In this document: positions 1,200 through 32,938 of the stretch, piece after piece
How positions within the stretch are numbered: the first letter of the stretch is position 1
How the letters are laid out: every line of letters begins with the position of its first letter
Assembly: GCA_000092065.1 (NCBI GenBank)
Contig: CP000595.1
From: Ostreococcus lucimarinus
Taxonomy: Eukaryota
Direction: 5' to 3' (one strand)
Length of the DNA stretch: 64,000 nucleotides
The notes under the pieces: model-generated
The model's input: the letters and a program-made list of their open reading frames with translations, nothing else
Told to the model about the DNA's origin: nothing
The model's database searches: none
Translations under genes and position numbers: made by a program

Positions 1200-1309
1200 G
1201 GCGGGCGATGGCGCGCGCGACGATGCGCGGCGCGGCGCGAGGGCGGCGCGAAGGCTAACCGAAACGCGAGCGAGAGTCAATAATTACAAACGACGCGACG
1301 ACGACGCGA

Positions 1310-2626: not shown

Positions 2627-2749
2627 GGAGGCGACGCGCGCCGTTCGCGACGCGACGGAAAATTCGATTCGCGCGACGACGAGTGACGACACACGGCGGC
2701 GCGGCGCGCGCGACGCCGCACCGGCGCGGCGCGCGCGATCGCGTCGCGA

Positions 2750-4402
2750 ATGCCGCCGTCGACGCGTCGGCGTCGCGCGGCGCGACGGTGCGCGCGCGCG
2801 ATCGGCGTCGTCGCGTCGCTGTTCGCGACGCGGTCCGTCATCGCGCGCGCGCGCGCGGCGCCGCGAGCGACGCGCGACGCCGAGCGCGAGGGCGGCGATG
2901 CGTCGACGCGCGACGACGCGACGCGCGACGCGTCGACGCGCGACGGGACGTTCTGGGCGCGCGCGCGCGCGGACGCGGGACGACGGGACGAGGTGAAGGC
3001 GGCGATGCGAGAGGCGTTCGGGGCGTACAGGACGCACGCGCTGGGACACGACGAGCTCGCGCCGCGCGCGCGGACGGGGCGAGACGATTTCGGTGGGATC
3101 GGGGCGACGCTGATCGATAGCTTGGACACGCTGCACATCATGGGGTTGCGCGCGGAGTTCGACGAGGCGCTGCGGTATTTGAAAAAGCCGGGATCGGCGT
3201 TTCGGGATTTGGTGCAGGGCGAGACGGACAGAGACGTGAGCGTGTTCGAGACGAACATTCGCGTTCTGGGAGGGCTGCTGGCGGCGCACGATTTATCGGG
3301 CGACGCGGACGTTTTAGAGCTCGCGGAATCCATCGCGGCGAGACTTTCGGCGGCGTTCGACACCCCGAGCGGAGTGCCGCACTCGTTCGTGAACGTCAAG
3401 ACTGGGAACTCGTTTGGGTTACCTTGGACGAAAGGCGCGTCCATACTCGCCGATTTCGGGTCGATGCATTTGGAGTGGGCGACGCTGAGCGCGCGCACGA
3501 AGAATCCGGTGTACGAGGCGCACACGAATCACGTGTTCGAGACGGTCTCATCCCTGGGACGACGAGGCAAAAGTGGCGCTAGCACCAAGGGTTTGTTTTC
3601 CGCGCATTTTAACGTCGATACCGGAGAGTTTGCGGGCGGAGACGTCACTTTCGGTGCGCTCGGCGATAGCTTTTACGAATACTTGATCAAGTGTTGGCGT
3701 TCGCTCGGCGATTTAAAAGACGCCGAGACGTGGCGCGAGATGTTCGACGAAGCCATGCTCGGGATGAAAACGAGTTTGCTGCGAGACTGGAAAACGGACG
3801 AGGCGACTGGTGAGAAGTATTCGTACGTTTCTCCGATTGGAGGTTCCGGTGCCGGTTCGATGGAACATCTCGCGTGTTTCGTCCCGGGTATGCTCGTGCT
3901 CGGCGCGGCAGAGGCGCCCACGCCTACAACCGCCGATGAGTACGTGCAAATAGCGAAGGATATCGCGCGTACGTGTGTAGAAATGTATTCTTCTCAGCCT
4001 TGCGGCCTATCCGCGGATCACGTGCGATTCGACTCGGGTTCAAAGACCATCTCGAACATCAACGGCAAAAATATTCAACGCCCGGAAACGGTGGAATCTT
4101 TGTTTTATTTGTATCGCAAAACTGGAGATGAAATTTATCGGACACAAGCTTGGAAAATCTTTCAATCCATGAAGTCAGCTTATCGAGTCCCCGAAAGTGG
4201 CGGCTGGCAAGGCGTGCTCGACGTCTCGAAGACCCCGACGGCGGGCGACGACAAGATGCAATCATTCTTCCTCGCCGAGACGTTGAAGTATTTATATCTC
4301 ATCTTCACCGACAGTGATACAATGCACTTGGATGAGTGGGTTTTCAACACCGAGGCACATCCACTGAGAATCACAAAGGCACGTGAACGACTGAACGATT
4401 GA
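2750..4402 (+). CDS. GH47 class I alpha-1,2-mannosidase (ER mannosidase I-like), type II membrane protein
   Basis: 550-aa ORF with a true ATG at 2750 and an N-terminal TM (AIGVVASLFATRSVIA). GH47 motifs present: GGLLAAHDLSGD, EFAGGDVTFGALGDSFYEYLIK, FFLAETLKYLYLIFTD. Diverges from KdsB with about 125 bp between starts. Confidence 0.85.
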   Translation: MPPSTRRRRAARRCARAIGVVASLFATRSVIARARAAPRATRDAEREGGDASTRDDATRDASTRDGTFWARARADAGRRDEVKAAMREAFGAYRTHALGHDELAPRARTGRDDFGGIGATLIDSLDTLHIMGLRAEFDEALRYLKKPGSAFRDLVQGETDRDVSVFETNIRVLGGLLAAHDLSGDADVLELAESIAARLSAAFDTPSGVPHSFVNVKTGNSFGLPWTKGASILADFGSMHLEWATLSARTKNPVYEAHTNHVFETVSSLGRRGKSGASTKGLFSAHFNVDTGEFAGGDVTFGALGDSFYEYLIKCWRSLGDLKDAETWREMFDEAMLGMKTSLLRDWKTDEATGEKYSYVSPIGGSGAGSMEHLACFVPGMLVLGAAEAPTPTTADEYVQIAKDIARTCVEMYSSQPCGLSADHVRFDSGSKTISNINGKNIQRPETVESLFYLYRKTGDEIYRTQAWKIFQSMKSAYRVPESGGWQGVLDVSKTPTAGDDKMQSFFLAETLKYLYLIFTDSDTMHLDEWVFNTEAHPLRITKARERLND

Positions 4403-4704
4403 CAAACACGCCGAGCAATACGGAAGGTGGATATTTATCACAACTTTGTAATAGGATAGCATAGAAAGTAGAAGTAGAAACGGCGTGCGGCGATGCTGCG
4501 TATTACTGCGTAGTTTACTTTGAGCTTCATGCGTTGCTTTGATGATACGGACACGCTCGCTCGCGACGAAGAAGACGACTCCAGCGCTTTCCTCGCGCCA
4601 GCGAGACTTGAATGGATGAAACAAGAATTGAAACAATTGAAAGAATGATCGTCATTTGCGACGAACGTAATGAATTCGTTTGGAATCTTACCACGAATGA
4701 CGCT

Positions 4705-6108
4705 CTATTCGTCGAATCGAAACGGTGTAGATTCCCTCGACGTCGTCCTCTCTTCGACGACGACCTTGGTGACTTTACTCTCGCCGCGCCGCGGCGGATA
4801 GAGATACTGGCGCATGTCGGCGCAAGTGTAAGAATTGAGCTTTAATTCGCGGTACGTAGACGTCGGTGATGCATCGATGAGCTCACTCGCGGTGATGCGT
4901 TTGGTGTGATCCTTACGCAAACACGCCGATAACAACGCGCGCAGTGCGTTTGAGACGGCGTCTTCGCCGTCGACGGCGCCGGCGACGTCGATGTCGTCGT
5001 CCATGATTTGTATCACCAACCCCAGTGGGCCGCCGTCTTCGATATCGAACACGTGCTTTCCCATGACACTTTCGAGGACTGTGAGACCCATGCCCCAGAC
5101 GTCGGCTTCGGGCCCGCATCTCGCGGCGCTCGATTCCAAGCGTTCGGGCGACATGTACATGATGGTTCCGAGCGAGTCGTGCGCGTCGTCTTCGACATCG
5201 CCACCCGTGAAGGGCGTGCACAGACCAAAGTCGCTCAGTTTACACTCCCCGCACTCGTTTATCAACACATTGCTCGGCTTCACGTCGCGATGTACGATCT
5301 CGAGAGTGTCGTGTAAATACGCCAACCCGTTGGCGACGCACCTCGCCGCGCACATCGCCGCCCGCGGCGCGAAACGCATCGACCCGCGCAACCTCACGAC
5401 GTCTTCCAACGATCCGAAATGCATGAGTTCGAGCGTGATCGACACCTCGTTTTTAACCGCATCGTACCCGAACCCAAAACATCGCACGAGCCCTTCGTAA
5501 GTCGGCGCGCTCTCCGTTTCCTCGTCGTCCTCCGCCGCCGTCGGGTCAACGCCGAGCGCGCCTCGCGCGGTCAACGAAGACCACCCTTCGACGTCCCCAT
5601 TCCTATCGAACCGCGCGTTCACCGACGACGACGAAATGCGCTGAAACGTCCACATTTCCCGCTTCGCTTGCACCGCCATCGCGCGATCGTCCGCTCGGAT
5701 GCGTTTCGTCGCTCGCCTCGCGTCTTCGCCGCGCGTCACCACGCTCGAGCTTCCTCGACCGAGCACGCGCGACGACCCCCCCCCCAGCGTCGACCCGCCG
5801 CCGACCGCCGCCGCGCTCGACCTCAGCGACGCGCTCGACGACGACGACGACACCGACCGCGACGGCCTCGGTTTCTTCGCGCGCGCGCCCGCGTCGTCGC
5901 GTCGTCGTCGCGCGGGCATCTCCGATAAAGCGCCACCCCAAAAAAGTGCATCGCCGTCGCGCGCGTCCTCGCGCGCGCCGATGCGCGTCCGCGCCGACGC
6001 GCGCGCGCCGACGCCACCGAAATCCAAATCATCGCTCGACGACGACGACGACGACGACGCCATCGCGCGCCGTCGACTCGCGTCGCCGCGCGCGACGCGG
6101 GTCGTCAT
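4705..6108 (-). CDS. MAP kinase kinase (MEK)-like Ser/Thr protein kinase
   Basis: LGRGSSSVVTR (G-loop), ATKRI (VAIK-like), HRDVKPSNVLIN, LSDFG, GTIMYMSPER (MAP2K-type activation-loop/P+1 signature). True ATG at 6108. Confidence 0.8.
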   Translation of the reverse strand: MTTRVARGDASRRRAMASSSSSSSSDDLDFGGVGARASARTRIGAREDARDGDALFWGGALSEMPARRRRDDAGARAKKPRPSRSVSSSSSSASLRSSAAAVGGGSTLGGGSSRVLGRGSSSVVTRGEDARRATKRIRADDRAMAVQAKREMWTFQRISSSSVNARFDRNGDVEGWSSLTARGALGVDPTAAEDDEETESAPTYEGLVRCFGFGYDAVKNEVSITLELMHFGSLEDVVRLRGSMRFAPRAAMCAARCVANGLAYLHDTLEIVHRDVKPSNVLINECGECKLSDFGLCTPFTGGDVEDDAHDSLGTIMYMSPERLESSAARCGPEADVWGMGLTVLESVMGKHVFDIEDGGPLGLVIQIMDDDIDVAGAVDGEDAVSNALRALLSACLRKDHTKRITASELIDASPTSTYRELKLNSYTCADMRQYLYPPRRGESKVTKVVVEERTTSRESTPFRFDE

Positions 6109-6498
6109 TAAAGCGCACGGCGACCGCGCGACGTCGCGCCGTTCGTCCGAGTCGTCCGCCCGCGCGCCGCGCGCGGCGAGTCAGGACTCGCGCCGCGCGC
6201 GCGTCTCCGGCCGTTCGCCGCCGATTCGTCTACCGGCGACGCGCGGCGCGACCTTTGACGACGCGAGAAGACGAACCGTCGTCCGCGCGTCCGAATTTTC
6301 CGTATGTCCGAACCGACACACTGCCACCATACGAAAGCGTCCGAATTCCGCGTTCGCGAGGGGGTCGCGATGAGTCGGACTCGTCGCGCGCGTCGCGCGA
6401 GCCAATCGAAACGCTCGATCCGAGCGCGCGCGCGCTCGAGCGTGAGGCGATCGCGCGCGCGCGCGCCGGCCGGCACACGACGACGCACCGCACGAAAG

Positions 6499-7006
6499 AT
6501 GTCTGGACGAGGTAAAGGAAAATCCGGCAAGAAGGCCACGAGCCGATCCGCCAAGGCGGGCTTGCAATTCCCGGTCGGCCGGGTCGCGCGCTACCTGAAG
6601 GCTGGCAAGTACGCGACGCGCGTCGGCGCCGGTGCGCCGGTGTACTTGGCGGCTGTCATGGTGAGTGGTTTTTTGAAATTTGAAATTTGAAATCGAGCGT
6701 TCGCGGCGCGCGCGGCGATGGGCTCGGGATGGTGGACGAAGACTGACGCGTTGAATCGTTGTGTTTTACGCCGCGTAGGAATACTTGTGCGCCGAAGTGC
6801 TCGAACTCGCGGGTAACGCCGCGCGCGACAACAAGAAGTCGCGCGTCGTGCCGCGCCACATCCAACTCGCGATCCGCAACGACGAAGAGCTCTCCAAGCT
6901 CCTCGGCACCGTCACGATCGCGGCGGGTGGTGTTTTGCCGAACATCCACTCCGTTTTGTTGCCGAAGAAGTCCAAGAAGTCTGGCTCGGCGTCCCAAGAA
7001 TACTAA
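6499..7006 (+). CDS. H2AX: Histone H2A.X; two exons (6499..6660, 6779..7006) with a 118-nt intron at 6661..6778
   Basis: Exon 1 reads [54 protein letters not shown]. The donor is GTGAGT. The intron contains AGACTGACG 31 nt before the AG. Exon 2 reads [75 protein letters not shown]. The C-terminal SQEY is the H2A.X SQ[E/D]-hydrophobic motif. Confidence 0.85.
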
Positions 7007-7070
7007 ATCTTTTCTCAGATTTTGAATTTTTAGCGCCTCGCGCGCGCAAACAAAACAAACCAAAAAAATT

Positions 7071-7100
7071 ACTTGGTGTTCATTCAACACCACCACGAGA
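7071..7100 (+). terminator. Possible histone-mRNA-type 3' stem-loop downstream of H2A.X (tggtgtt-cattc-aacacca), flanked by an upstream A-run and downstream CCAC
   Basis: A 7-bp stem with a 5-nt loop lies 65 nt after the H2A.X stop. It resembles the histone stem-loop but does not match it. Seen directly in the sequence. Confidence 0.25.
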
Positions 7101-7154
7101 AGAAAGAATGTTTCACTATGCGCATTACATCATCATAATTAATCGTTCGCGTCA

Positions 7155-10052
7155 TCAAGCCGGCTGGATGGCTAAGCGCTCGACGACGTTGCTCCTGGAA
7201 TCTCTCGCGAGCTTGTCGAGAGGGAACGCCGTGCGTACCATGTACTCGACGCCCTTGCGACCTTTTTGGTACGGACGCGCGATGCCCAAGAACTCCAACT
7301 CGGCCACGGCGCGAGTAAATCGCGCCTGAAGCTGCCATAATTTTTCTCGCGGCAAACCGAACGTGCCTTTACCGCGAGCCGCCGCCGCTGCATCGCCGCG
7401 TTTCATCTCCGACCCCGCTTTACTCTCGCAAAAACTTTGAAACCAGTCGTATATGGGCGCTCGTTCGCCGAATCGCGCGAGTAGGCGATACGCCGCGGCG
7501 GTGTCAGGCAACGTTTCCGGCACGCGTCGACCGTTCGCCAAGGCGTAGTCATCGTGACGACAGCACGCGCATCGCAGCAGCTCGCTCGGATCCGTGAGCG
7601 TGTTCTCCAACGACAAACGAGGCGACGCCTGAAGCGCGGCGCGAACGCATTCGACGTCGGTGACGACGAATATTCCGCTCGCATCGATCGATTCCGGTGG
7701 GTGACTCCCGTACTTGCGCGCGATGGCGCGAAGAATGTCGCAAAATTCATTCGCCGCCGCGGATTTCGCCGAGTCGAGTCGAGGTCGTTCTGGCTTCGCC
7801 GCCGTTGCCACCGTCGTCGTCACCAAAGCTAGGGCGTTGGCTTCACTCCTCGCCGGTGCGCTTCGACCGCGCGGTGGAGACTTAGGAAGTACCAAACCAT
7901 CGTTCGCCGCGGCGTCTTCATCGCGCGTTGAAGTCCTCGGCGCCGGCGTGAGGCTCGTCGCAAACGCCGCGCCGTTTCCACGCCGTTTCCGTGCGTTTAA
8001 GATTGCCTCCATCGCTAGTCGCTGATCTTCCGCGTTCGTCTCGTCGTGCGCCAGTTTTTCAGCCGTTGCATTGGCATTCGACGCAGCGATGACGAGACCG
8101 CGCCGTTCGTCGCCACCTTCGTTCGTCGGCGTGGATGCCAAAATTGCCGCCTCTCGCCGTCGAGCGTCCTCCGCGTCGAACGAGCCGTCCTCTATGTTTG
8201 ACAGTAAAAAGCGCAGCTCCGAACCTTCTGCCGACCGCATGACCTCATCATCGTCCAAGAATTTCAGCATAGACTTGACCAAATCACCGATTTCCGCCGT
8301 CGTGAACTCGTCCCGAATGCGCGAGAACGCGACGTTGAGCAACGTCCCGCCTTGACTCTTGGGGTTGAATTCTCCAGCACCACCAAAGTATCCTTTTCGC
8401 GACGCGTCGAGGAGTAAGTCTGCCATCGTCGTCACGCTCTTTTTGAACTTTTTCTCCGTCGCCGCGCACGCGACTTGAATGCAACGCAACGAGAGTGCCC
8501 ACCGTCGCCGCAAGCGGTACACATCCTTCAGCGCCGCGCTCAGTTCGCTCTTCGTGTGCGTCGTTGAAGACGCGGAGTCGCCGTCCCCGTCTCGCATCGA
8601 CTTTGCACCGAATCCGTGCTTGATGCGCGCGTACTCCACCGCGTTCGGATCGAGATCTCGAACGAATTGGTCGATGGCGTCGCCGTACTCGTCGTCGCTC
8701 TCGTCGCCGTCGGCGCAAGGCTCGCTCGAATCTTTAGCGAGCAGCGGCAACACCGCGCTCAGCGGCTCTGTCATGAAGTGTGTGATCGTGAGCAAATGGA
8801 GCGCACGACGCACGGCGGCGAGGGAAAAGTCGTGCTCTTTAAAGCGCGTGTGCAAAACGTTCAACACCTCGCTTCCAAACGCGGGCACGCGCTCGGGGCT
8901 CAACAGCACGCGCTCTTGCACAGCCTCCATCATTTGCCCGGGCGCCCAAAGCTGGAACGCCTGCGCGTTCATCAACGATGCCGTGGCGGCTGGTAACATC
9001 CCTTGAAGCGAACTCACACTCGTGGCCAAGCCCAAGAGGACGACGACGGGCACGCTCGAGACGAATTCCGAAACGCTTCGAATAAACGAATCCAACACGC
9101 GCACGTCGAAACTTTCCGTATCCTCGACGACGATAACCACCGGACAATCGCGACCTTGAATCACTGGATATAACGTCCTTTCGTCGTCGCCCGCGCGCTC
9201 CACGTCATCTCTCGCGCGCCGCTTCGACCGTCTCGCCGGCGACGTCGCGCGCGAATCTGTCGCCGCCCGCTTCTTCCCCCCCCGCGCGCGAACGTCGTCG
9301 CCCTCTCCCGATGCGCGCGAATCACCGCCATTGTACACCGTCAACGCGTTCCCGATCGGCGACGGCACCGTCGACGCCGCGATGAGCCCGTCTCGACGCG
9401 CCCCCGACGTCTCCTCGTGCCATCGCCGCAGCGCGCGCATGCTCTTCCCCCCCCAATGCCCCCCCGTGCGGTCCAACTGCCGCATGATCACCCCAAACGC
9501 CACCCCTAGCCCCCCGGTCCCGGCCCCCGCGCGCGCCTTCAGATCTCTCGACCGCAACAGCGCCACGTGCGCGTCTCCGCTCTTCCTCAACGATTTCGTC
9601 AGCGCCGCGAACGTCTCCTCGTGATCGTCGCTGTTCACCCCTCCCGCCAGCACCACGCCCACCGGCACGCGTCGATCGCCGCCGTTATTTTTTTCCTCCG
9701 TTTCTCGCGCGCGTTCGACCCGCGTCGCGCCCTGCTCGCGGACGAACCTCCTCACCCTCGCGAACGCCTCCGCGTTCGCCTCGTCGGCGACGCGTTGACA
9801 GTGTCCATCCAGCGCCTCCCACGCCCGCGCGCACGCCGCCGCGCGCCGCTCTCGCGCGCCGCGCGTTTCATCCCGCAACACCGGTTCGAACGCGTTCAGT
9901 CGCGACGCCTCGTCGCCTCGCGGCGCCGCGCGCGCGGATTTCAGCACGAAGACGCCCGACTTTAAACCATCGTTCGTCTTGAACGCCCCGATTTCTCGCG
10001 CGTCCGGCGCCGCGCGCGTCGACGCGTCGACCCGCTTGGCGCGGGACGTCAT
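7155..10052 (-). CDS. ORC3: Origin recognition complex subunit 3 (ORC3)
   Basis: ORF 7155..10541. ORC3-like core VVIVVEDTESFDVRVLDSFIRSV...VVLLGLATSV and C-terminal FTRAVAELEFLGIARPYQKGRKGVEYMVRTAF. First ATG after the low-complexity leader is at 10052 (MTSRAKRVDAS...). Confidence 0.75.
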   Translation of the reverse strand: MTSRAKRVDASTRAAPDAREIGAFKTNDGLKSGVFVLKSARAAPRGDEASRLNAFEPVLRDETRGARERRAAACARAWEALDGHCQRVADEANAEAFARVRRFVREQGATRVERARETEEKNNGGDRRVPVGVVLAGGVNSDDHEETFAALTKSLRKSGDAHVALLRSRDLKARAGAGTGGLGVAFGVIMRQLDRTGGHWGGKSMRALRRWHEETSGARRDGLIAASTVPSPIGNALTVYNGGDSRASGEGDDVRARGGKKRAATDSRATSPARRSKRRARDDVERAGDDERTLYPVIQGRDCPVVIVVEDTESFDVRVLDSFIRSVSEFVSSVPVVVLLGLATSVSSLQGMLPAATASLMNAQAFQLWAPGQMMEAVQERVLLSPERVPAFGSEVLNVLHTRFKEHDFSLAAVRRALHLLTITHFMTEPLSAVLPLLAKDSSEPCADGDESDDEYGDAIDQFVRDLDPNAVEYARIKHGFGAKSMRDGDGDSASSTTHTKSELSAALKDVYRLRRRWALSLRCIQVACAATEKKFKKSVTTMADLLLDASRKGYFGGAGEFNPKSQGGTLLNVAFSRIRDEFTTAEIGDLVKSMLKFLDDDEVMRSAEGSELRFLLSNIEDGSFDAEDARRREAAILASTPTNEGGDERRGLVIAASNANATAEKLAHDETNAEDQRLAMEAILNARKRRGNGAAFATSLTPAPRTSTRDEDAAANDGLVLPKSPPRGRSAPARSEANALALVTTTVATAAKPERPRLDSAKSAAANEFCDILRAIARKYGSHPPESIDASGIFVVTDVECVRAALQASPRLSLENTLTDPSELLRCACCRHDDYALANGRRVPETLPDTAAAYRLLARFGERAPIYDWFQSFCESKAGSEMKRGDAAAAARGKGTFGLPREKLWQLQARFTRAVAELEFLGIARPYQKGRKGVEYMVRTAFPLDKLARDSRSNVVERLAIQPA

Positions 10053-10104
10053 GCGTCGCTCTCGCGCGCGCGTCTCGCGTCGCGCGGCGCGCGCCGCGAC
10101 GCGC

Positions 10105-10158
10105 TGTGCGGTCGAACGTCGTCGATGATTTGAATCATCGACGACGTTCGACCGCACA
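10105..10158. repeat. Near-perfect 52-nt palindrome (24-26 bp arms tgtgcggtcgaacgtcgtcgatgat around a ttga loop) in the ORC3 / 10239-gene bidirectional promoter
   Basis: Read directly from the sequence. This explains the mirrored peptides (SNVVDD.NHRRRSTAQ) seen in both the plus and minus ORFs of the track. Confidence 0.85.
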
Positions 10159-10238
10159 ATCGAGCGCTCGCGCGCGAACGCGACGCGAACGTCGCCCCGA
10201 ACGCGGCGAGCGACGCGGAACTCGTCATCGCGCGCGTC

Positions 10239-10763
10239 ATGGCGCCGAAGAAACCGGCGCAGAAGAGCGCGAAGGCGCAGATCAAGGAGCAAAGAGATCA
10301 GATTCGGCAACAAATCAAAACCATTCGAGACGAATCCGCGTCGACGCACGTCCTGGACAGCCTGTACGACGCCGCGCTGGGGCTCGAACTGTGGCTGCGA
10401 ACGAACTCGAGCGCGTTTCCGAGCGCGGCGGTGAAACAGAAGACGGAGCGACTGGGGGAGATCGCGACGCAGGCGACGAGAGGGACGCTGGACGCGGACG
10501 CGGCGTACTGGGAACTGGCGGGACTGTACACGATCATCCATCGCGAGTGCCAGAAGGAAGATTTGGGGTTGGTGTTTCCGTCGTTCGTGTTTCCGGACGG
10601 AGGGATGCCCGCGCTCGGGGAGGGGGACGCGCTGACGCTGGCGGACGTGCGAGAGGCGATCGGGTGCGAACTCACGGCGGAGGCGCTGGACGCGAAGATC
10701 GCGGAGTTGGAGGAGATCGAACGCGCGAAGGCGGCGCTGGAGGCGATGGACGCGGACGCGTGA
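10239..10763 (+). CDS. Hypothetical conserved-looking 174-aa protein
   Basis: Non-repetitive ORF (MAPKKPAQKSAKAQIKEQRDQIRQQIKTIRDE...LYTIIHRECQKEDLGLVFPSFVFPDGG...). No family recognised. Confidence 0.5.
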   Translation: MAPKKPAQKSAKAQIKEQRDQIRQQIKTIRDESASTHVLDSLYDAALGLELWLRTNSSAFPSAAVKQKTERLGEIATQATRGTLDADAAYWELAGLYTIIHRECQKEDLGLVFPSFVFPDGGMPALGEGDALTLADVREAIGCELTAEALDAKIAELEEIERAKAALEAMDADA

Positions 10764-16115: not shown

Positions 16116-16269
16116 CGTCGACGCGCGCGGACGTCGAGACGCGCCGCGCGCGCGTCGTCGCGACGCGAAAGCGTCGTCGTGTGACTGATTTCGAAACGAA
16201 TCGCGTTCGCGCGTCGTTCGCGCGCGCGCGCGCGCGACGCGCGCGACGCGCGGCGACGCGGGACGCGCG

Positions 16270-17127
16270 ATGGTTACGCGCGGCGTCGCGCGCGCGCTCG
16301 GCGCGAGTCGCGGCGTCGCGCGCGCGCGCTCGCGCGCCGAGGTGTGCGACCGACGACGCGCGCGCGGCACATCTCGACGCGACATGCGCGCGCTTCGCGC
16401 GACGAGCGCGCGCGCGACGACGCGCGACGGCGCGAAGCGCGCGTCGCGCGCGCGTCGCTCGTCCCGCGTCGCTCGAAACGCGTCGAGCGCGACGCACGAG
16501 CCGTGGGAACTCGGGCTGGGCGAATTGCACTTTTCGACGCGCGACGTCGACGCGCTCGCGGGCGCGAGCGCGCGCGACGACGCGCTCGGCGCGCTCTCGC
16601 CGACGTGGCGAATGCTGTTGCTGAGCGATGGGAGCGTGACGCGACACCTGAGCGTGCTGGGACGGGCGGAGAGGACGGAGGTGGAGGTGACGCGGCGAAG
16701 CGCGCGGGACGACGGGACGCGCGCGCGGGGACGACCGTCGCGACCGAGCGACGTGGAGGCGATGCTGCGGGGACCGATCGTGCGTCGAGAGGTGTACCTG
16801 CGCGCGGGAGAGGTGCGAGGCGCGGACGGGCGACCGGCGGTGTACGCGGCGTCGTGGTGGAACGAGGACGCGCTCGCGGCGTATCTGCCGGACGAGGACG
16901 CGTCGATGTGGGCGAATCTGCGAACGCGGCACGTGGAGTTGCACCGAGAGATTCGAGAGGTGTATTACGGCGAGAGCGAGGGTTTAGAGGCGGCGTTCGG
17001 CGAGCGCGGGCCGTTTTGGGGGCGGCATTATATTTTTTGGAGCGGCGGCGCGCCCATCACCGTCGTGTACGAAGTCTTCAATCCCGCGGCGTTTGAAAGG
17101 GCGCTCGGGCCTTTGAAGGCGGCGTAG
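16270..17127 (+). CDS. Chorismate lyase / DUF98 (UTRA-fold)-like protein, probably plastid targeted
   Basis: WRMLLLSDGSVTRHLSVLG... core typical of the DUF98 / chorismate pyruvate-lyase-like family. R/A/S-rich N-terminus. True ATG at 16270. Confidence 0.55.
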   Translation: MVTRGVARALGASRGVARARSRAEVCDRRRARGTSRRDMRALRATSARATTRDGAKRASRARRSSRVARNASSATHEPWELGLGELHFSTRDVDALAGASARDDALGALSPTWRMLLLSDGSVTRHLSVLGRAERTEVEVTRRSARDDGTRARGRPSRPSDVEAMLRGPIVRREVYLRAGEVRGADGRPAVYAASWWNEDALAAYLPDEDASMWANLRTRHVELHREIREVYYGESEGLEAAFGERGPFWGRHYIFWSGGAPITVVYEVFNPAAFERALGPLKAA

Positions 17128-26597: not shown

Positions 26598-27465
26598 GCG
26601 CGCGCGATTCGGTCGCGCGCGCGCGCGCGCGGCGCGTCGCGGTCGGCGGCGCCGCGCGCGTCGATGAGTGGCGATTTTGACGCGCCGAGAGACGAACAGA
26701 CACTTCGACGCCGACGCCGCGGCGCGTCGACCGGAACGAAGGGCGATATCATACAAATTTATCGTAACACTCGACGCGGGCGCTTCGCGAGACGCGACGA
26801 TCGAGCGCGGTCGTCGTCGACCCGCGCGCGCGTTCGCGGCGTCAGCCGTGCGAACAAACTTTACGCGCGCGAGCGTCACCTCGCCGCGCTCGATCGTCGC
26901 GCCGTCGCGCGAGTCGCCCTTCGCGTCGTTCGCGTCGCTCGCGTCACCCGCATCCGGCGCCCGAGGACGCGTCGCCCGTCAACCCTAAATCATCCGCGCT
27001 CAGCTCGCGCTCGAGGGCCTCGATGATCTCCAGCGCGCTCGGCGGTCGGCCTCGCGAGAGCGCGCTGAACGCGGCGTCCTTCGCGCGCGCCCCCTCGAGA
27101 TCCGCCTCTCCCGACCCATCGTCCAGGCTGTCGCACACCACCACCTCGAACGCCCCCGGTCGAGGTCCCGCGTCGCCGACGACGCGCGCGTCGTTGCCGT
27201 CCACCATCAATCGCGGGAACGCGTCCTCGACGGCGTCGGCGACGGCGAGAAATGCATTTAAATGCTTCCCTTCGTCGTATTCGACGTGAATCGTCCTCGG
27301 CGGCGCGTTCCCGAGCGCGCTTCGTCACGCGTACGCGCGGTAGACGACGCGCGCGCGAAGTCGCTCGCATCCGCGCCGCGCGAGCGCGCGGAGCGCGGAC
27401 ATGACGACGTCGAAGCGGCGAAACGTCGCGCAGTGACGCTTTATCCGGGACACCGCGACGTCACG

Positions 27466-28500
27466 ATGACGCGCGTCGCGCGGCGGCTGCGACGCGCGAG
27501 CGCGACGCTCGCGCGCGCGATGACGTCGATGGTTCATCACTCCGCGACGCGGCACGCGCCGGGGGCGAACGGCGCGGTGCCCGTGGTGCATCACGCGAGC
27601 TACAGCAAACCAGTCATGCCGCGCGGGCACAGATTTCCGATGACTGTTTTCCAGCGCGTGCACGACATCCTGCGCGAAGAGGGCGTCATCGCGAGAGGGC
27701 AGACGAATTGCTTCGTCCCGGGACGCGCGCCGAGCGTGGACGAGCTGTGTCGAGCGCACGATGAAGATTACGTGAGAGACGTGCGCGCGAGCGCGCTGGA
27801 CGCGAAGCGCGAGAGAGAAATCGGACTGCCGTGGAGCGACGCGCTCGTGGAGAGAACGCTGATGGAGGTTTCGGGGACGATGCTGACGGTGGATTTGGCG
27901 ATGAAGGTGGGATTGTGCGTGAACACGGCGGGAGGGACGCATCACGCGCATCGCGATAGGGGGAGCGGGTTTTGCATCGTCAACGATTTGGCGGTGTCGG
28001 CGCTGAGGGCGATCGATTCGGGGGCGGTGTCGAGGGTGATGATTATAGATTTAGACGTGCATCAAGGCGATGGGACGGCGGCGATTTTAGCGAACGAACC
28101 GGGCGTGTTTACGTTTTCGGCGCACGCGAAGTCTAATTTTCCGGCGCGAAAGCAACAGAGCACGCGAGACGTCGAGCTGCCGCGCGGGATGACGGACGAC
28201 GCGTACATGGCCGTCGTCGCGGCGGCGATGCGAGAGTCTCTCGAAGACTTTCGGCCAGAGTTGGTGATTTACGACGCAGGCGTGGACGTGACGTCGAACG
28301 ACACACTCGGACATCTCGATCTCACCGTCGAAGGGCTGTATCGACGCGAGCGCATGGTGATGGACACCGTGCTCGGCGCCGGCATTCCCCTCGCGGGGGT
28401 CGTCGGGGGTGGGTACTCACCGGATATAGATGAGCTCGCGAGTCGTCACGCAGTCTTGCATCGCGTGGCGCGCGAAATGTTCGTCGATCACGGGTTGTAA
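27466..28500 (+). CDS. Histone-deacetylase-superfamily enzyme (class IV HDAC11 / AcuC-like)
   Basis: VVHHASYSKPVMPRGHRFPM (HDAC11-like N-term), GGTHHAHRDRGSGFCIVNDLA, IIDLDVHQGDG, VIYDAGVDV, GGGY. The track ORF starts at 27262, but the first 68-86 residues are R-rich. Start placed at ATG 27466 (MTRVARRLRRAS..., presequence-like); the alternative is ATG 27520. Confidence 0.7.
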   Translation: MTRVARRLRRASATLARAMTSMVHHSATRHAPGANGAVPVVHHASYSKPVMPRGHRFPMTVFQRVHDILREEGVIARGQTNCFVPGRAPSVDELCRAHDEDYVRDVRASALDAKREREIGLPWSDALVERTLMEVSGTMLTVDLAMKVGLCVNTAGGTHHAHRDRGSGFCIVNDLAVSALRAIDSGAVSRVMIIDLDVHQGDGTAAILANEPGVFTFSAHAKSNFPARKQQSTRDVELPRGMTDDAYMAVVAAAMRESLEDFRPELVIYDAGVDVTSNDTLGHLDLTVEGLYRRERMVMDTVLGAGIPLAGVVGGGYSPDIDELASRHAVLHRVAREMFVDHGL

Positions 28501-28521
28501 ACTAAATTAATAGTATCGTAG

Positions 28522-29475
28522 TCATCCGGCATCTGTGACCCGTCGCCGTTCTTCGTCGATCTCCGGTAGCAACGCGTCCACGCGCGCCGCTCTGTGCGCT
28601 TCGTCATACAGTCGTCTGTGCTCTCGCCAGAAAGGCAAGATTTCGCGAAGGGAGACGTGCCCGCCGTCGGCGTCGTGTCGATGCCGATGTCGAGAAAGTG
28701 CGATTTCGAGACCGATTACCGCGTCGGCGTCCGGGAGAATCGGCATCGCTACTTTTTCCCAGGTGAGTCGTAGACTCTGCGCGTGTGGATGCTCTCGCTC
28801 AATCAGGAAGAGTATGACTTCCATGTTCCCATTTGACATGGCACAAAAGTACGTCTTCGCGTCCCAAGGACACCCGTGCTCGTGCGCGTACTTCAAACAC
28901 TCCAAATGTCCATAATTGGCGGCATACCAGCACGTCCACACGTTCCAAGGACACCCTTGCTCGTGTGCGTACTTCAAACACTCCAAATGTCCATTCTTGG
29001 CGGCATACCAGCACGTCTCCTCGTCCCAAGGACACCCGCGCTTGTGCGCGTACTTCAAACACTCCAACTGTCCATTCGAGGCGGCATCACGGCACGTCCA
29101 CACGTCCCAAGGACACCCGCGCTCGTGCGCGTACTTCAAACACTCCAAATGTCCATAACGGGCGGCATTCGCGCACGTCTTCGCGTTCCAAGGATACCCG
29201 AGCGCGCGCGCCTCTACGAGAAGGTCCAACCTCCCCACGGCGGCGCACGCACCAGACACAGTTCCTTGCGCATCCTCTTCCGGTCGTATACCGTCGTCCA
29301 AGGTGGCGATAGCATCCTCAATTGTGTTTCTATACAACCAGTCCACGTTTTCTTCCGCGATTGCCACGAGCGCGGCTCTCAAACGCGCCTGAACTTCACT
29401 CATGTGTGTCTCGCGAGTCGATGTGTGAGGACGCGCCGCCGATAGTCGCGCTCGACCACTCGATGACATTTTCAA
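28522..29475 (-). CDS. Ankyrin-like repeat protein, copy A (five 27-aa GCPWDxxTCxxAAxNGHLECLKYAHExx repeats)
   Basis: 317-aa ORF with five tandem 27-residue repeats encoded by an 81-bp nucleotide repeat. N- and C-termini are nearly identical to copy B. Confidence 0.75.
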   Translation of the reverse strand: MKMSSSGRARLSAARPHTSTRETHMSEVQARLRAALVAIAEENVDWLYRNTIEDAIATLDDGIRPEEDAQGTVSGACAAVGRLDLLVEARALGYPWNAKTCANAARYGHLECLKYAHERGCPWDVWTCRDAASNGQLECLKYAHKRGCPWDEETCWYAAKNGHLECLKYAHEQGCPWNVWTCWYAANYGHLECLKYAHEHGCPWDAKTYFCAMSNGNMEVILFLIEREHPHAQSLRLTWEKVAMPILPDADAVIGLEIALSRHRHRHDADGGHVSLREILPFWREHRRLYDEAHRAARVDALLPEIDEERRRVTDAG

Positions 29476-29572
29476 GCGCGATCGTATCGTACGACGCGGC
29501 GATTCAGTGACGATAAACTAAACTAATCGTAGGTAGGGAGGTGCACGTTACATCATCGCGTCGTCATCGTCG

Positions 29573-30769
29573 TCATCCGGCATCTGTGACCCGTCGCCGT
29601 TCTTCGTCGATCTCCGGTAGCGACGCGTCCACGCGCGCCGCTCTGTGCGCTTCGTCATACAGTCGTCTGTGCTCTCGCCAGAAAGGCAAGATTTCGCGAA
29701 GGGAGACGTGCCCGCCGTCGGCGTCGTGTCGATGCCGATGTCGAGAAAGTGCGATTTCGAGACCGATTACCGCGTCGGCGTCCGGGAGAATCGGCATCGC
29801 TACTTTTTCCCAGGTGAGTCGTAGACTCTGCGCGTGTGGATGCTCTCGCTCAATCAGGAAGAGTATGACTTCCATGTTCCCATTTGACATGGCACAAAAG
29901 TACGTCTTCGCGTCCCAAGGACACCCGCGCTCGTGCGCGTACTTCAAACACTCCAAATGTCCATACTTGGCGGCATACCAGCACGTCTTCGCGTCCCAAG
30001 GACACCCTTGCTCGTGCGCGTACTTCAAACACTCCAAATGTCCATTCTTGGCGGCATACCAGCACGTCTCCTCGTCCCAAGGACACCCGCGCTTGTGCGC
30101 GTACTTCAAACACTCCAACTGTCCATTCGAGGCGGCATCACGGCACGTCCACACGTCCCAAGGACACCCGCGCTTGTGCGCGTACTTCAAACACTCCAAC
30201 TGTCCATTCGAGGCGGCATGCGCGCACGTCCACACGTCCCAAGGACACCCGCGCTCGTGCGCGTACTTCAAACACTCCAAATGTCCATTATTGGCGGCAA
30301 ATGAGCACGTCGACGTGTTCCAAGGACACCCGTTCTCGTGCGCGTACTTCAGACAGTCCAAATGTCCACCATCGGCGGCATCCATGCACGTCTTCTCGTC
30401 CCAAGGACACCCGTGCTCGTGCGCGTACTTCAAAATCCTAAAATATCCAGACGAGGCGGCATTCGCGCACGTCTTCGCGTTCCAAGGATACCCGAGCACG
30501 CGCGCCTCTACGAGAAGGTCCAACCTCCCCACGGCGGCGCACGCACCAGACACAGTTCCTTCCGCATCCTCTTCCGGTCGTATACCGTCGTCCAAGGTGG
30601 CGATAGCATCCTCAATTTCTTCTTCATACAAAGCGTTCACGTCTTCTTCCGCGATTGCCACGAGCGCGGCTCTCAAACGCGCCTGAACTTCACTCATGTG
30701 TGTCTCGCGAGTCGATGTGTGAGGACGCGCCGCCGATAATCGCGCTCGACCACTCGATGACATTTTCAA
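29573..30769 (-). CDS. Ankyrin-like repeat protein, copy B (eight 27-aa repeats)
   Basis: 398-aa paralogue of copy A. It has the same N-terminus (MKMSSSGRARLSAARPHTSTRETHMSEVQARLRAALVAIAEE) and C-terminus (...REILPFWREHRRLYDEAHRAARVDA.LPEIDEERRRVTDAG), plus three extra repeats. Confidence 0.75.
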   Translation of the reverse strand: MKMSSSGRARLSAARPHTSTRETHMSEVQARLRAALVAIAEEDVNALYEEEIEDAIATLDDGIRPEEDAEGTVSGACAAVGRLDLLVEARVLGYPWNAKTCANAASSGYFRILKYAHEHGCPWDEKTCMDAADGGHLDCLKYAHENGCPWNTSTCSFAANNGHLECLKYAHERGCPWDVWTCAHAASNGQLECLKYAHKRGCPWDVWTCRDAASNGQLECLKYAHKRGCPWDEETCWYAAKNGHLECLKYAHEQGCPWDAKTCWYAAKYGHLECLKYAHERGCPWDAKTYFCAMSNGNMEVILFLIEREHPHAQSLRLTWEKVAMPILPDADAVIGLEIALSRHRHRHDADGGHVSLREILPFWREHRRLYDEAHRAARVDASLPEIDEERRRVTDAG

Positions 30770-30887
30770 GCGCGATCGTATCGTACGACGCGGCGATTCA
30801 GTGACGATAAAGCGCTCGTGATTCTATAATCTATTCGAACGCGTCTACTTCTAGTCCTTCCGGCGCGCCATCGTCGCGACGGCGCGT

Positions 30888-31754
30888 CTAAACCTCTACG
30901 TCTAATCTCGCGAGCAAATCGTCAATGCGATGCAACGCCTCGCTCGCCGCCGGCGGACAAAACTGGCGCGCGCGCTCGAGCAAGTCGCGTATCTTCTCCG
31001 TATCCGCGGGTTTCCGTTCGTCCGCGGCGGATTTCAACAACCAAACCGCCGTCCTGTACGCATCATCCGCCAACGACGCGTCCGTATCGCTCCAACCCGT
31101 CTCCGAATCGGCGCCTTCGGCGTCGTGGAACTCGTCGCCGGCGTCGTCAAAGTCTCGCGAGTCGTCGAACTCGTCATCATCGCGCGAAACGAATTCGTCG
31201 TCATCACCCTCGTCCTCGTCCTCTTGTTCCAGCAAAGCTCGCGTCTGGGCGATCGTTTTCAACAACTTTTCCTTGGCCTCCGTCATCGAGCGAGGACAGC
31301 ACGACTCCGCGTACACAAATCTTCGCAACGCCTCGTTCAAATCGCCCCGTTTCAACGCGCGCACGCCAGCCTTAAACTCTTCATCCGCGATCACGGCGTC
31401 TTCATCGTCATCCCGCTCGTCGTCTTCATCGTCGACGTCCGAATCCCCCGAAGCCGCCGCCGCGCTCGCGTCGCCGTCTTCGTCCACTTCGCGCGCCCGT
31501 CGTCCCCACTCATCCTCCCCAGGTTTCGCCGCGCCGTAAATAACCGAACACGCATCCATCGCGTACCCTCGCCGCGCCCGCCGAGCCGCGTTTTCTTCAA
31601 TCTCTCGCTCCGCGCGTCGCATCAAATCCATTGGATTCTGATTTTGCATTTGATTCTGCGCTCGTTTCTGATTCTGATTCCGTCCTTCGCGCGCGCGCGC
31701 GCTCGACGCGCTCGCGCCGTCGTCGCGCGTCGCGTCGGCGACGCCGCGCTCCAT
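30888..31754 (-). CDS. Hypothetical acidic (D/E-rich) protein
   Basis: ORF 30888..31859 (track start is GTG). First ATG at 31754 (MERGVADATRDDG...). Contains long D/E tracts and helical segments (ALRRFVYAESCCPRSMTEAKEKLLKTIAQTRALLEQ). No family recognised. Confidence 0.45.
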   Translation of the reverse strand: MERGVADATRDDGASASSARAREGRNQNQKRAQNQMQNQNPMDLMRRAEREIEENAARRARRGYAMDACSVIYGAAKPGEDEWGRRAREVDEDGDASAAAASGDSDVDDEDDERDDDEDAVIADEEFKAGVRALKRGDLNEALRRFVYAESCCPRSMTEAKEKLLKTIAQTRALLEQEDEDEGDDDEFVSRDDDEFDDSRDFDDAGDEFHDAEGADSETGWSDTDASLADDAYRTAVWLLKSAADERKPADTEKIRDLLERARQFCPPAASEALHRIDDLLARLDVEV

Positions 31755-31951
31755 GTCGACGGACTCCCGCGCGGACGCGCGCGACGAAGTGACGCGAACG
31801 AATCCAATCCAATCCAATCCACACCGGTCGGTCGCCGTCTCGGGACGACATGGGGACACCTCTCAGACGGCACTCTGAGACGCGCCGCTCGCTCGAACGA
31901 ACGAACGAACGAACGCGACCGAACGAAAAAAACGAACGAACGAAACCCTTC

Positions 31952-32938
31952 ATGCTCTGCTCCGCGCTGAACGCGCGAACGACGACGTGCGGACGAACGA
32001 CGACGATGCGAGGCCTGGCGTTGGGAAGACGCGCGGCGCGCGTCGGCGCGCGAGGCGTCGGGACGACGACGCGCGCGTCGCAGGCGGAATCTCAAACCGC
32101 GACGAGCGAACAACAACAGGGAGAACAATCTCAGCAAGGTGGTTTGCAGCGACAGCAAGAGCAGAAGCGAGCGCTGGCGCGGTCGCCGTTGTCTTCTATG
32201 ATGGCGTTTCCGAGTCTGATGTCGGGCATGACGCCGTTCGGGTTGTCGAGAAGCATGCAGAGAGAGATGGCGAACATGATGAACTTGATGGATGACATGA
32301 TGACGGGCGGGGCTCTGGCGCCGTTTGAGACGCTGGATCCGTTTAAGATCACGATGCACGCCGATCACACGCAAGGGGTGCCTCAACAAATCTTGAACTT
32401 TCCGATGGGTACGACGACGACGACGACGACGCGAGCGAGCGAGAGCAAACGAGAGCGGGACGAAACCTTGAATCACGAGCGAGCGAGAGCAAACGAGAGC
32501 GAGACGAAGCCTCGAATCACGACGTGAACGACTGACGTTTGACTCATCGTCGACCCTTTCCGCGCACCACCAGACGTGATTCAAAAGAAGGACAAGTACA
32601 TCGTCAAGGCTGATTTACCGGGCCTGTCGATGAAGGATGTCAGCGTCGAGGTGGACGAAAAGAATCGCATCTTACACGTCACGGCAAAGCGCGAGCACCG
32701 AGCCGAAGAACAAGACGAAACCGTGGACAAGGGCGCGAAGTGGGTCGCGTACGAACGGTTCTACGGCAAGATGGATCGCTCGTTCGGCCTTCCCGAAGAC
32801 GCGGTGGCGGAAAAAGACGCCATCAACTGTCGATTGGTGAACGGCGAGCTCACGGTGTCCATCAAGCGCAACCCGCCGCAGGAGGAAGAGGCCGAGAAGC
32901 AGGCGCCGCGCACGAAGATTCCGATCATGGATCACTAA
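31952..32938 (+). CDS. Small heat-shock protein (HSP20/alpha-crystallin) with organellar presequence and Met-rich N-domain (chloroplast HSP21-like); two exons (31952..32408, 32574..32938) with a 165-nt intron
   Basis: Exon 1 reads MLCSALNARTTTCGRTTTMRGLALGRRAAR...SPLSSMMAFPSLMSGMTPFGLSRSMQREMANMMNLMDDMMTGG...ILNFPM(G). The donor is GTACGA; the intron contains CGACTGACG 40 nt before CAG. Exon 2 carries the ACD: DVIQKKDKYIVKADLPGLSMKDVSVEVDEKNRILHVTAKRE...KWVAYERFYGKMDRSFGLPEDAVAEKDAINCRLVNGELTVSI. The join completes a GAC (Asp) codon. Confidence 0.8.

Follow-up and report, generated by a model that had tools for sequence, protein, structure and literature searches.

Expanded families of tandem ankyrin genes are already known in the Mamiellales and in giant viruses, and the genes described here are of a similar kind. 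The Mamiellales family HOM000035 of pico-PLAZA numbers 149 copies in Bathycoccus prasinos and 56 in Micromonas CCMP1545 (Moreau et al. 2012, PMC3491373), and Bodo saltans virus carries 148 ankyrin-gene copies with 4–17 repeats each, in tandem arrays described as a 'genomic accordion' (PMC5871332). A further point of comparison is provided by the ANK, TPR and WD repeats of high internal conservation (HiC) in fungal NOD-like receptors, for which the criterion is at least 85% amino-acid identity between repeats across a minimum of 100 residues (Paoletti 2007; Dyrka et al. 2014, PMC4986451); HiC repeats make up only 0.4% of Viridiplantae repeats (PMC4986451). The subject of this report is a locus in a 64,000-nucleotide stretch of contig CP000595.1 of Ostreococcus lucimarinus (hereafter the window), where two adjacent genes on the minus strand, A and B, encode ankyrin-type proteins with different numbers of a 27-residue repeat unit. 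Comparison with fifteen related contigs, most of them short-read metagenome assemblies, reveals that the polymorphism of this locus exceeds copy number alone. Taken together, the observations make it likely that the locus has evolved as a gene for a polymorphic recognition-type protein whose diversity comes from the shuffling of its repeats.

Gene B, the upstream copy (29573–30697; ATG at 30697, stop codon at 29573–29575), encodes a protein of 374 residues, and gene A, the downstream copy (28522–29403; ATG at 29403, stop codon at 28522–28524), one of 293 residues. Both are defined by open reading frames and Pfam ankyrin matches (for A, Ank_4 at 2e-16), and B in addition by a structure prediction. 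The start codon, at the sequence MSEVQ, was adopted from gene calls on related contigs; counted from upstream TTG codons, the listed open reading frames span 28522–29475 (317 residues) and 29573–30769 (398 residues). A first-pass annotation of the sequence had described the genes as adjacent minus-strand paralogues with near-identical 5′ flanks, N-termini and C-termini, differing by exactly three 27-residue units. This observation is real and was confirmed in all its particulars. The difference in length is 81 residues, or 3 × 27; the DNA of A and B is identical at 113/114 positions in the leader and 5′ flank, 191/204 in the N-terminal region and 332/333 in the C-terminal region; and the two blastn self-alignments of the locus (28515–29211 with 29566–30262, 96.7% identity; 28851–29517 with 30145–30811, 90.3%) have offsets that differ by 243 bp, that is, by three units.

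The repeat arrays, located with Tandem Repeats Finder at 28860–29211 (4.3 copies, 85% matches, score 480) and 29902–30505 (7.5 copies, 86%, score 768), have a period of 81 bp and outscore all other tandem repeats in the window by a wide margin. Gene B contains seven complete units on the minus strand (29927–30493), followed by a partial eighth motif, GCPWDAKT, at 29903–29926; gene A contains four (28876–29199), with a partial fifth motif at 28852–28875. The earlier count of five against eight copies thus holds for the GxPW motif, whereas the complete units number four and seven, each array ending in a partial motif. Similarly, the statement that the units are more than 85% identical in DNA stands when they are compared with their consensus and is slightly generous for pairs, for which the mean is 83–85% and the range 75–95%. 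At the protein level, the units of B are on average 68% identical to one another, those of A 70% and those of the allele in contig L007 also 70%, or 68–72% overall.

A first protein search returned relatives with the same N- and C-termini and different middles. Nine contigs (L001, L002, L005–L009, L011 and L015) have flanks 98.4–99.9% identical to the window, and each carries, between the same neighbours, one gene that differs from both A and B. When the contigs and protein matches are combined, 36 full-length alleles are available, with 1, 2, 3, 4, 5 or 7 complete units. Unit number varies at the same syntenic position in L001, L002, L006–L009, L011 and L015, mostly short-read assemblies. All differences in allele length are exact multiples of 81 bp, and 35 of the 36 sampled alleles retain an open frame in perfect 27-codon register. 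The locus is therefore copy-number polymorphic at two levels, one gene against two between near-identical flanks and one to seven complete units per allele, as the first-pass annotation had predicted. A sister lineage, represented by L012 (approximately 87% DNA identity), has a single orthologous gene beside the same histone-deacetylase-family gene that neighbours A. Diversity is sharply focused on the gene. Among alleles the mean pairwise DNA difference rises from 0.12–0.25% in the 1 kb flanking the gene on each side to 1.1% in the C-terminal region and 6.0% in the N-terminal region, and is much higher still in the repeats; the DNA only a few dozen bases outside the gene is approximately 99.8% identical.

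Within the unit, variation falls at positions 5, 6, 7, 10, 11, 14, 15 and 27, where the entropy is 1.1–3.6 bits; elsewhere it is near 0. These eight of the 27 codons hold 84% of the nucleotide differences between units, and the ratio of nonsynonymous to synonymous proportions of differences (pN/pS) is 1.8–2.1 at the eight codons compared with 0.49 in the framework. The synonymous proportion itself is four times lower in the framework than at the variable codons (0.054 versus 0.23), which is what continual homogenisation of the framework would produce. To avoid circularity, the sites were redefined from distant homologues, among 700 units of which positions 6, 7, 10, 11, 14 and 15 are the most variable. 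At these six externally defined sites, pN/pS takes an indicative value of 1.65 (bootstrap 1.24–2.40), rising to 2.4 in the sister lineage alone; for the 21 codons outside them it is 0.89. Positions 6, 7, 10, 11 and 14 have the spacing i, i+1, i+4, i+5, i+8, which places them on one face of helix 1 of the unit, and by the same periodicity Thr8, Cys9, Ala12 and Ala13 make up the buried face opposite. In ankyrin domains, helix 1 is the inner one and lines the concave groove used for binding. The variable residues are thus predicted, from helical periodicity and the homology alignment, to lie on the concave binding face.

The assignment to the ankyrin fold comes from profile searches and from structure prediction, the two routes that the first-pass annotation had proposed, the second of them for distinguishing an ankyrin-like helix-turn-helix from a different fold. 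Models of the ankyrin clan match both proteins above their curated cut-offs: for B the scores are 83.3 bits for Ank_4 (cut-off 22.7; 1e-23), 80.5 for Ank_5 (27), 66.5 for Ank_2 (27.3) and 40.8 for Ank (21.1), and A likewise exceeds the cut-offs of all four. An AlphaFold2 (AF2) model of B, built with 115 aligned relatives, has a predicted local distance difference test (pLDDT) score of 85.8 overall and of more than 93 across the repeats. It consists of regular helix-turn-helix pairs, with no strands assigned by DSSP, and these antiparallel pairs are predicted to stack as in an ankyrin solenoid. There are nine such pairs in the model: one N-terminal and cap-like, seven corresponding to the full units, and one degenerate pair at the C-terminal end. 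In each unit, helix 1 spans positions 6–14, a turn positions 15–17 and helix 2 positions 18–26, and a six-residue loop runs from position 27 through positions 1–5 of the next unit. The predicted structure of the 27-residue unit is therefore ankyrin-like and not a different fold.

The period had been noted earlier as shorter than the canonical 33 residues, and this is correct: when aligned by HMMER to designed 33-residue repeats among Protein Data Bank (PDB) sequences, every unit shows a six-residue gap at the β-hairpin. In place of the canonical 33-residue period with a β-hairpin or long loop, we find 27 residues, no strands and six-residue loops. Of the signature motifs of the fold, the Ala-Ala pair and Gly16 are present in 100% of units and His17 in 71%, Leu18 and Leu21 are kept, and TPLH is reduced to T-C, with one helix-1 residue missing. 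As modelled, the unit is an ankyrin helix pair from which the hairpin 'finger' has been removed, rather than a distinct fold. The protein search matched more than 6000 proteins, including ones from Bodo saltans virus, a diatom and Coccomyxa, and in 85 distant relatives 27 is the commonest unit spacing (325 of approximately 500 spacings). Since this spacing dominates in the distant homologues, we are dealing with a widespread short ankyrin subtype.

The alleles are mosaics. Among 100 units there are 65 distinct signatures, 49 of which were seen once. The same inner units occur with three N-terminal variants and two C-terminal ends, the same N-terminal variant occurs with different arrays, and the variable cassettes 5–7, 10–11 and 14–15 are near linkage equilibrium (z approximately 1–2.5 above shuffles). 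Units 1–3 of B are identical at 243/243 positions to those of the allele in L002. Units B5–B6 match A2–A3 at 161/162 positions, a block that no other sampled allele has at that identity and that may have been either exchanged or retained between the two copies. B4 and B5 differ only at codons 10–11, with four changes in six bases and none in the other 75. The N-terminal 204 nt of A differ at only three positions from the single-gene allele of L001, and the repeat units of A have no close match among those of L001. These mosaics, together with the 81-bp steps in length, appear to be the marks of in-register unequal crossing-over and gene conversion, acting within and between copies. The earlier proposal that these processes are at work at the locus is thereby upheld, given the mosaic alleles of varying unit number and their near-identical flanks.

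The flanks of the two genes are informative about how the pair arose. The leader and 5′ flank of B (30698–30811), which begins with TTTA at 30808–30811 and is also found upstream of single-gene alleles, recurs as a duplicated copy ahead of A (29404–29517). On its 3′ side, B is followed by a 'long' spacer of 59 nt (29514–29572), the last four bases of which, TTTA at 29514–29517, are the first four of the 5′ flank of A. The 'short' spacer of A (24 nt, 28498–28521) also ends in TTTA and overlaps the stop codon of the deacetylase gene; all four elements are on the minus strand. Both types of spacer segregate in single-gene haplotypes, both ending in TTTA, and where the long type is present there it runs straight into the deacetylase gene (TTTA/CAACCC, the slash marking the boundary). 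In the window, the spacer of B instead runs directly, at its terminal TTTA, into the 5′ flank that normally starts TTTATCGTCACTG upstream of the gene. At this duplication junction, TAGTTTA/TCGTCACTG, the two sources have only 4 bp in common, the TTTA microhomology. It follows from this arrangement that the duplicated segment takes in the whole gene, starting 110 nt ahead of the MSEVQ codon and ending at the stop codon of the deacetylase gene; the two copies in the window measure 1020 and 1298 bp.

The N-terminal variants of A and B are not the same, nor are their 3′ spacers, and each kind is also found among the single-gene alleles. Because the N-termini of the two genes are those of different alleles, the pair is most simply explained by an unequal exchange that left two alleles in tandem. 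Thus, from the sequence comparisons, the pair looks like two alleles brought together, possibly with later exchange of units, and not like a duplicate that diverged by point mutation. The 'recent tandem duplication' of the first-pass annotation is right in that the paralogues are in tandem and too simple in calling them a recent duplication.

The repeats lie between two regions of contrasting variability. The N-terminal region of B (68 residues; 30494–30697, minus strand) is predicted to comprise two helices and an ankyrin-like capping helix pair (helices 3–17, 22–36, 48–56 and 59–67 in the AF2 model), and contains a second variable patch at residues 16–33. That of A (68 residues; 29200–29403, minus strand) differs from it at 13 nt in eight codons, every one of which changes the amino acid, and among the alleles 13 polymorphic codons in the region are non-synonymous and two synonymous only. 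The C-terminal domain (89 residues, HPHAQS...TDAG; 29576–29842 in B and, within the 333-nt C-terminal region, 28525–28791 in A, minus strand) is an orphan helical domain with the invariant columns PDAD..G.E.AL...GG.(V/I)S.RE(I/F)LP.W.EH. Pfam searches with the isolated N- and C-terminal regions gave no match at E ≤ 10, and no PRANC/F-box or SOCS-box was found at this threshold in the 89 residues that follow the repeats; in A and B as a whole, no Pfam family other than the ankyrin models, NACHT and NB-ARC included, scored above its cut-off. A word-indexed search with the C-terminal domain gave 14 matches, all at least 83% identical, and an exhaustive HMMER search of 1.84 billion representatives gave eight, of which five are distant relatives combining ankyrin repeats with the domain and one is a spurious low-complexity bacterial match. 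All genuine relatives place the domain after the same short ankyrin repeats, and no function transferable from them was found by either search. AF2 confidence for the domain is low, with pLDDT 55–70 in the model of B and 61.3 in a run with distant relatives.

The true start of both proteins may be at MSEVQ or further upstream, as an in-frame ATG lies 66 nt 5′ of the MSEVQ codon in both genes (30763 in B, 29469 in A) and is conserved in a diverged relative. Use of this codon would add 22 residues rich in Ser, Arg and Ala (MSSSGRARLSAARPHTSTRETH; 30698–30763 and 29404–29469 in the window, approximately 480–550 in L012). The extension is nearly unchanged in the sister lineage despite the divergence of the adjacent N-terminal coding region, and could be either a targeting peptide or a 5′ leader that has been conserved.

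Several of the related sequences depart from the common arrangement. In L015 (positions 9730–10460 of ERZ10646630 contig_12368, 231 kb), where the locus again holds one gene and this gene two complete units, the N-terminal variable patch contains an extra 1 bp at two places and a TGA stands at unit position 14; either the allele is a pseudogene or these are long-read errors. In L003 (positions 1–10250 of ERZ17294019 NODE_1524698) a different N-terminus (P0068) is joined to the same repeats, C-terminus and deacetylase-gene flank. This contig is 99.45% identical to the window from the third-last unit onward, and none of its upstream 10 kb, with Ras/Arf, patatin, DUF3730 and SNF2 genes, occurs anywhere in the window; the contig may represent a rearranged haplotype, ectopic recombination that brought in a paralogue located elsewhere, or chimerism in the assembly. 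In L014 (1–1175) and in the proteins P0036, P0062, P0069 and P0079, the last units and C-terminal domain of the family are fused to at least four more N-terminal regions, again unrelated, and L014 breaks 203 bp upstream of its own gene, beside a (GAGAC)n run. L003 and L014 point to paralogues elsewhere, a rearranged haplotype or chimeras, and the presence of unrelated N-termini on one C-terminal module suggests a wider family with this module in common. Finally, reverse-complemented repeat units are joined directly to the leader in L004 (1–190) and to the array in P0067 and P0093, whose tails resemble a translation of the units in antisense; either the locus contains inverted duplications or hairpin artefacts arose where the contigs end.

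Could the variation be without function, the arrays expanding and contracting under weak constraint by slippage or unequal recombination? The wide range of unit numbers, the disrupted appearance of the L015 allele and a pN/pS outside the six sites that is not strongly purifying would all be natural consequences of neutral instability. It does not readily explain why the differences between units are so largely confined to eight codons, with pN above pS, why the same positions are the most variable in distant homologues and show the excess in the sister lineage, why all sampled alleles but one keep the frame and register, or why the gene has been kept at the same position in a lineage approximately 13% diverged; on this evidence we regard neutrality as improbable. 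An artefactual origin, in which assembly has stitched two alleles of the population into the pair seen in the window and the allelic series has been generated by repeat collapse and chimerism, must be weighed alongside. The different allelic N-termini and spacers of A and B are what stitching would produce, and an exact stretch of 305 bp common to the two genes cannot be spanned by short reads. Moreover, contigs that stop at the locus (L004, L005 and L014 end inside or beside the gene) and inverted units at contig ends, such as those with which L004 begins, mean that the region is hard to assemble. The 4-bp overlap at the junction, however, is far too short for an assembler join and must exist in the reads, so the junction is considered real; most unit signatures occur in one sampled allele only; and independent samples and assemblers (MEGAHIT, SPAdes, JGI (Joint Genome Institute) and one 'contig_' long-read-style assembly) all yield intact in-register genes. 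We therefore consider it quite improbable that the pair and its alleles are artefacts.

The third alternative concerns the repeat itself, which the first-pass annotation had thought might be a metal-binding, non-canonical one. Here Cys2, Cys9, Cys20 and His25, with or without His17, would coordinate zinc or another metal in a fold distinct from ankyrin. Among 66 distinct units, the occupancy is 68% for Cys2 (replaced by Tyr in the GYPW motif of first units), 100% for Cys9, 71% for His17, 95% for Cys20 and 95% for His25, and within the family the proposed ligands are nearly invariant; the framework residues are all equally so, and the Cys and His residues therefore carry no special signal. In the alignment to consensus ankyrin repeats, Cys2, Cys9, Cys20 and His25 fall on the Ala, Leu/Pro, Val/Leu and Leu of the hydrophobic core, and His17 is the canonical histidine of the Gly-His pair. 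Core positions might bring the residues close together, as a metal site would require, but their substitutes are hydrophobic or small: in the 700 distant units Cys20 gives way to Val, Ile or Leu, Cys9 to Thr, Ser or Val, and His25 to Arg, Leu or Tyr. CCCH is the commonest single ligand pattern in these units (153/700), and yet the patterns CCC-, -CCH, CC-H and C-CH, each lacking one ligand, account for approximately 7% each, and within the family His17 is Gln in 21% of units and Cys20 is Ile in the first unit of several alleles. The Pfam matches to TerY_C (11.2 bits, cut-off 28.4) and zf-C3HC (10.5 bits, cut-off 22.2), with E values of 0.4–0.6, are weak and below threshold, no metal-binding family scores above its cut-off in A or B, and AF2 gives a confident, ordinary ankyrin stack without any metal. 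The Cys and His residues thus appear, from their patterns of substitution, to behave as core residues and not as an obligate metal site, which we judge very improbable; this part of the first-pass annotation is not supported.

The combination of a variable ankyrin face, an invariant tail and the population pattern fits a recognition protein under diversifying or balancing selection. In the mechanism that we favour, the locus would encode a cytosolic ankyrin-type repeat protein of a green alga. In-register exchange among the 81-bp units, by unequal crossing-over and gene conversion, would homogenise the framework, change the number of units and reshuffle the variable codons, and diversifying or balancing selection would keep the variation on the predicted binding face. 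The protein could then act as a variable recognition module, with the conserved orphan C-terminal domain as its constant output or anchoring part. The ligand class would most likely be a target in biotic conflict or in self/non-self discrimination, for example, a viral protein; this is the least secure step, and that the function is recognition in biotic conflict is a tentative suggestion.

A number of points weigh against this interpretation. The only probable long-read contig, L015, has one gene at the locus and that gene looks disrupted. Short-read assemblies could collapse a two-gene haplotype into one across the exact stretch present in both copies, and some alleles could be chimeras of paralogues or strains. 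The pN/pS values are Nei–Gojobori proportions calculated on recombining, non-independent units with pN near saturation, and serve as an indication rather than a formal test. The placement of the variable residues on the concave face comes from periodicity and alignment rather than coordinates, the role of the C-terminal domain (pLDDT 61) as an output domain is a guess, and the ligand and the conflict hypothesis are pure conjecture. More speculative still is the idea that the locus is a specificity locus comparable to fungal het genes and NOD-like receptors or to a system of the major histocompatibility complex type, a natural 'DARPin library' (after designed ankyrin repeat proteins) held under balancing selection, whose alleles decide the recognition of viral proteins or conspecifics; we think this unlikely. 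In a more radical version, variation would be renewed by cassette-type gene conversion from ankyrin paralogues elsewhere, and the fusions in L003 and L014 would be its traces.

The surroundings of the locus are those of a cellular genome. The window is eukaryotic, with a G+C content of approximately 62%, from a compact genome, and the neighbourhood consists of eukaryotic housekeeping genes, among them the histone-deacetylase-family gene and genes for GMP synthase, HSP20, ribosomal protein L4 and an RTEL1-type helicase. The deacetylase-family gene (27262–28500, plus strand; Hist_deacetyl in gene calls on related contigs) is convergent with A, their stop codons lying 21 nt apart. The only proteins identical to the GMP synthase (100%) come from metagenomes; among named matches the best is from Micromonas pusilla (75%), and an unclassified Mamiellaceae strain gives 76%. 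These matches indicate a Mamiellophyceae-like green picoalga as the source. Searches with the N-terminal region, the C-terminal domain and the repeat unit found no member of the family in the window beyond the A/B locus. When A and B were looked up as exact sequences, with the one or the other start codon, nothing in the gene catalogue matched, and the alleles of the window itself are therefore absent from it. Upstream of B, the gene at 30888–31859 (minus strand) encodes a very acidic, low-complexity protein rich in Asp and Glu, with an imperfect 21-bp repeat at 31118–31175; gene calls on related contigs assign it no Pfam family. Opposite both arrays, on the plus strand, are long open frames (29541–30686, 381 residues; 28833–29445) that match no family; we rejected them as genes, since they simply mirror a GC-rich repeat free of stop codons and the ankyrin profiles match the minus-strand frame. 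Other simple repeats in the window are a (CG)n-rich array of 60–64 bp at 16208–16459, an intergenic (CGAA)13 microsatellite at 31894–31944 and a 44-bp tandem duplicate (93%) at 32432–32522.

Intracellular recognition and immunity are poorly understood in marine picophytoplankton. In Ostreococcus, resistance to prasinoviruses is tied mainly to the outlier chromosome, and no paper relevant to a role of ankyrin genes in this resistance emerged from a literature search. A peak of diversity, variation in unit number and hypervariable residues on a predicted binding face form the signature expected of a recognition gene, and the locus offers a short, easily amplified marker and candidate for host–virus or self/non-self studies in wild Mamiellophyceae. 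If the variation is neutral or artefactual, it is merely another unstable repeat gene. The hairpin-less 27-residue subtype is also documented here as the form regularly taken by the repeat in thousands of proteins from protists and giant viruses, and its definition should be useful for annotation and for repeat-protein engineering.

How, then, does the locus compare with the known systems? The viral arrays resemble it in their tandem gene duplication and variable repeat number, and ankyrin proteins of Bodo saltans virus are among the named matches (53–63% identity over about half of the query). The locus differs from the arrays of giant viruses and poxviruses in its position in a cellular genome amid housekeeping genes. 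With the patterns used, a scan of IMG/VR for close viral copies gave a single contig only, the viral-classified L016 (IMGVR_UViG_3300031637_000813), which encodes at 3001–4002 a 27-residue-type ankyrin protein 51% identical to residues 52–287 of B. A recent transfer between host and virus was considered and dropped, this one contig at 51% identity being all that IMG/VR gave. The poxvirus ANK/PRANC proteins and the ASB proteins, which combine ankyrin repeats with a SOCS box, are set apart by their C-termini, as that of the present family matches no PRANC/F-box or SOCS-box model in Pfam.

Designed ankyrin repeat proteins (DARPins) and consensus ankyrin designs are the best PDB matches of the protein in both sequence and structure (for example, 4O60, 4QFV and 1N0R). 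Like these, the present unit has an invariant framework with a handful of variable positions, and positions 14–15 are taken by us to correspond to the randomised DARPin positions 13–14. Unlike a DARPin, this is a natural protein; the hairpin 'finger', with half of the variable positions of a DARPin, is deleted, and the variable residues run along helix 1 (6, 7, 10, 11, 14 and 15). The fungal HiC repeats present a parallel in evolutionary terms, with repeat-number polymorphism between strains, which is matched here by the range of one to seven complete units, and concerted evolution with reshuffling of units. Positive selection in the fungal repeats acts at a few inner-helix positions of the concave face, as the elevated pN/pS at the externally defined sites and at the eight variable codons would suggest for the present units, in which the face is predicted from sequence. 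The two systems differ in that the amino-acid identity between units is here below the 85% criterion, the proteins lack NACHT/NB-ARC and any other known domain, a green alga is the host, and the unit has 27 rather than 33 residues.

By the published description, there is also a likeness to HOM000035, which comes from the same algal class and combines ankyrin repeats with a lineage-specific region without database match in many tandem duplicates; no Bathycoccus or Micromonas name appears among the 120 best protein matches listed. In contrast to that family, the repeats here are flanked by an orphan region on the N-terminal side and a conserved orphan domain on the C-terminal side, and there is one locus in the window. 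What is new relative to these systems is the population-level hypervariability of a single syntenic locus: such a regime is documented here in wild populations of a marine green picoalga, together with an explicit 27-residue, hairpin-less ankyrin unit.

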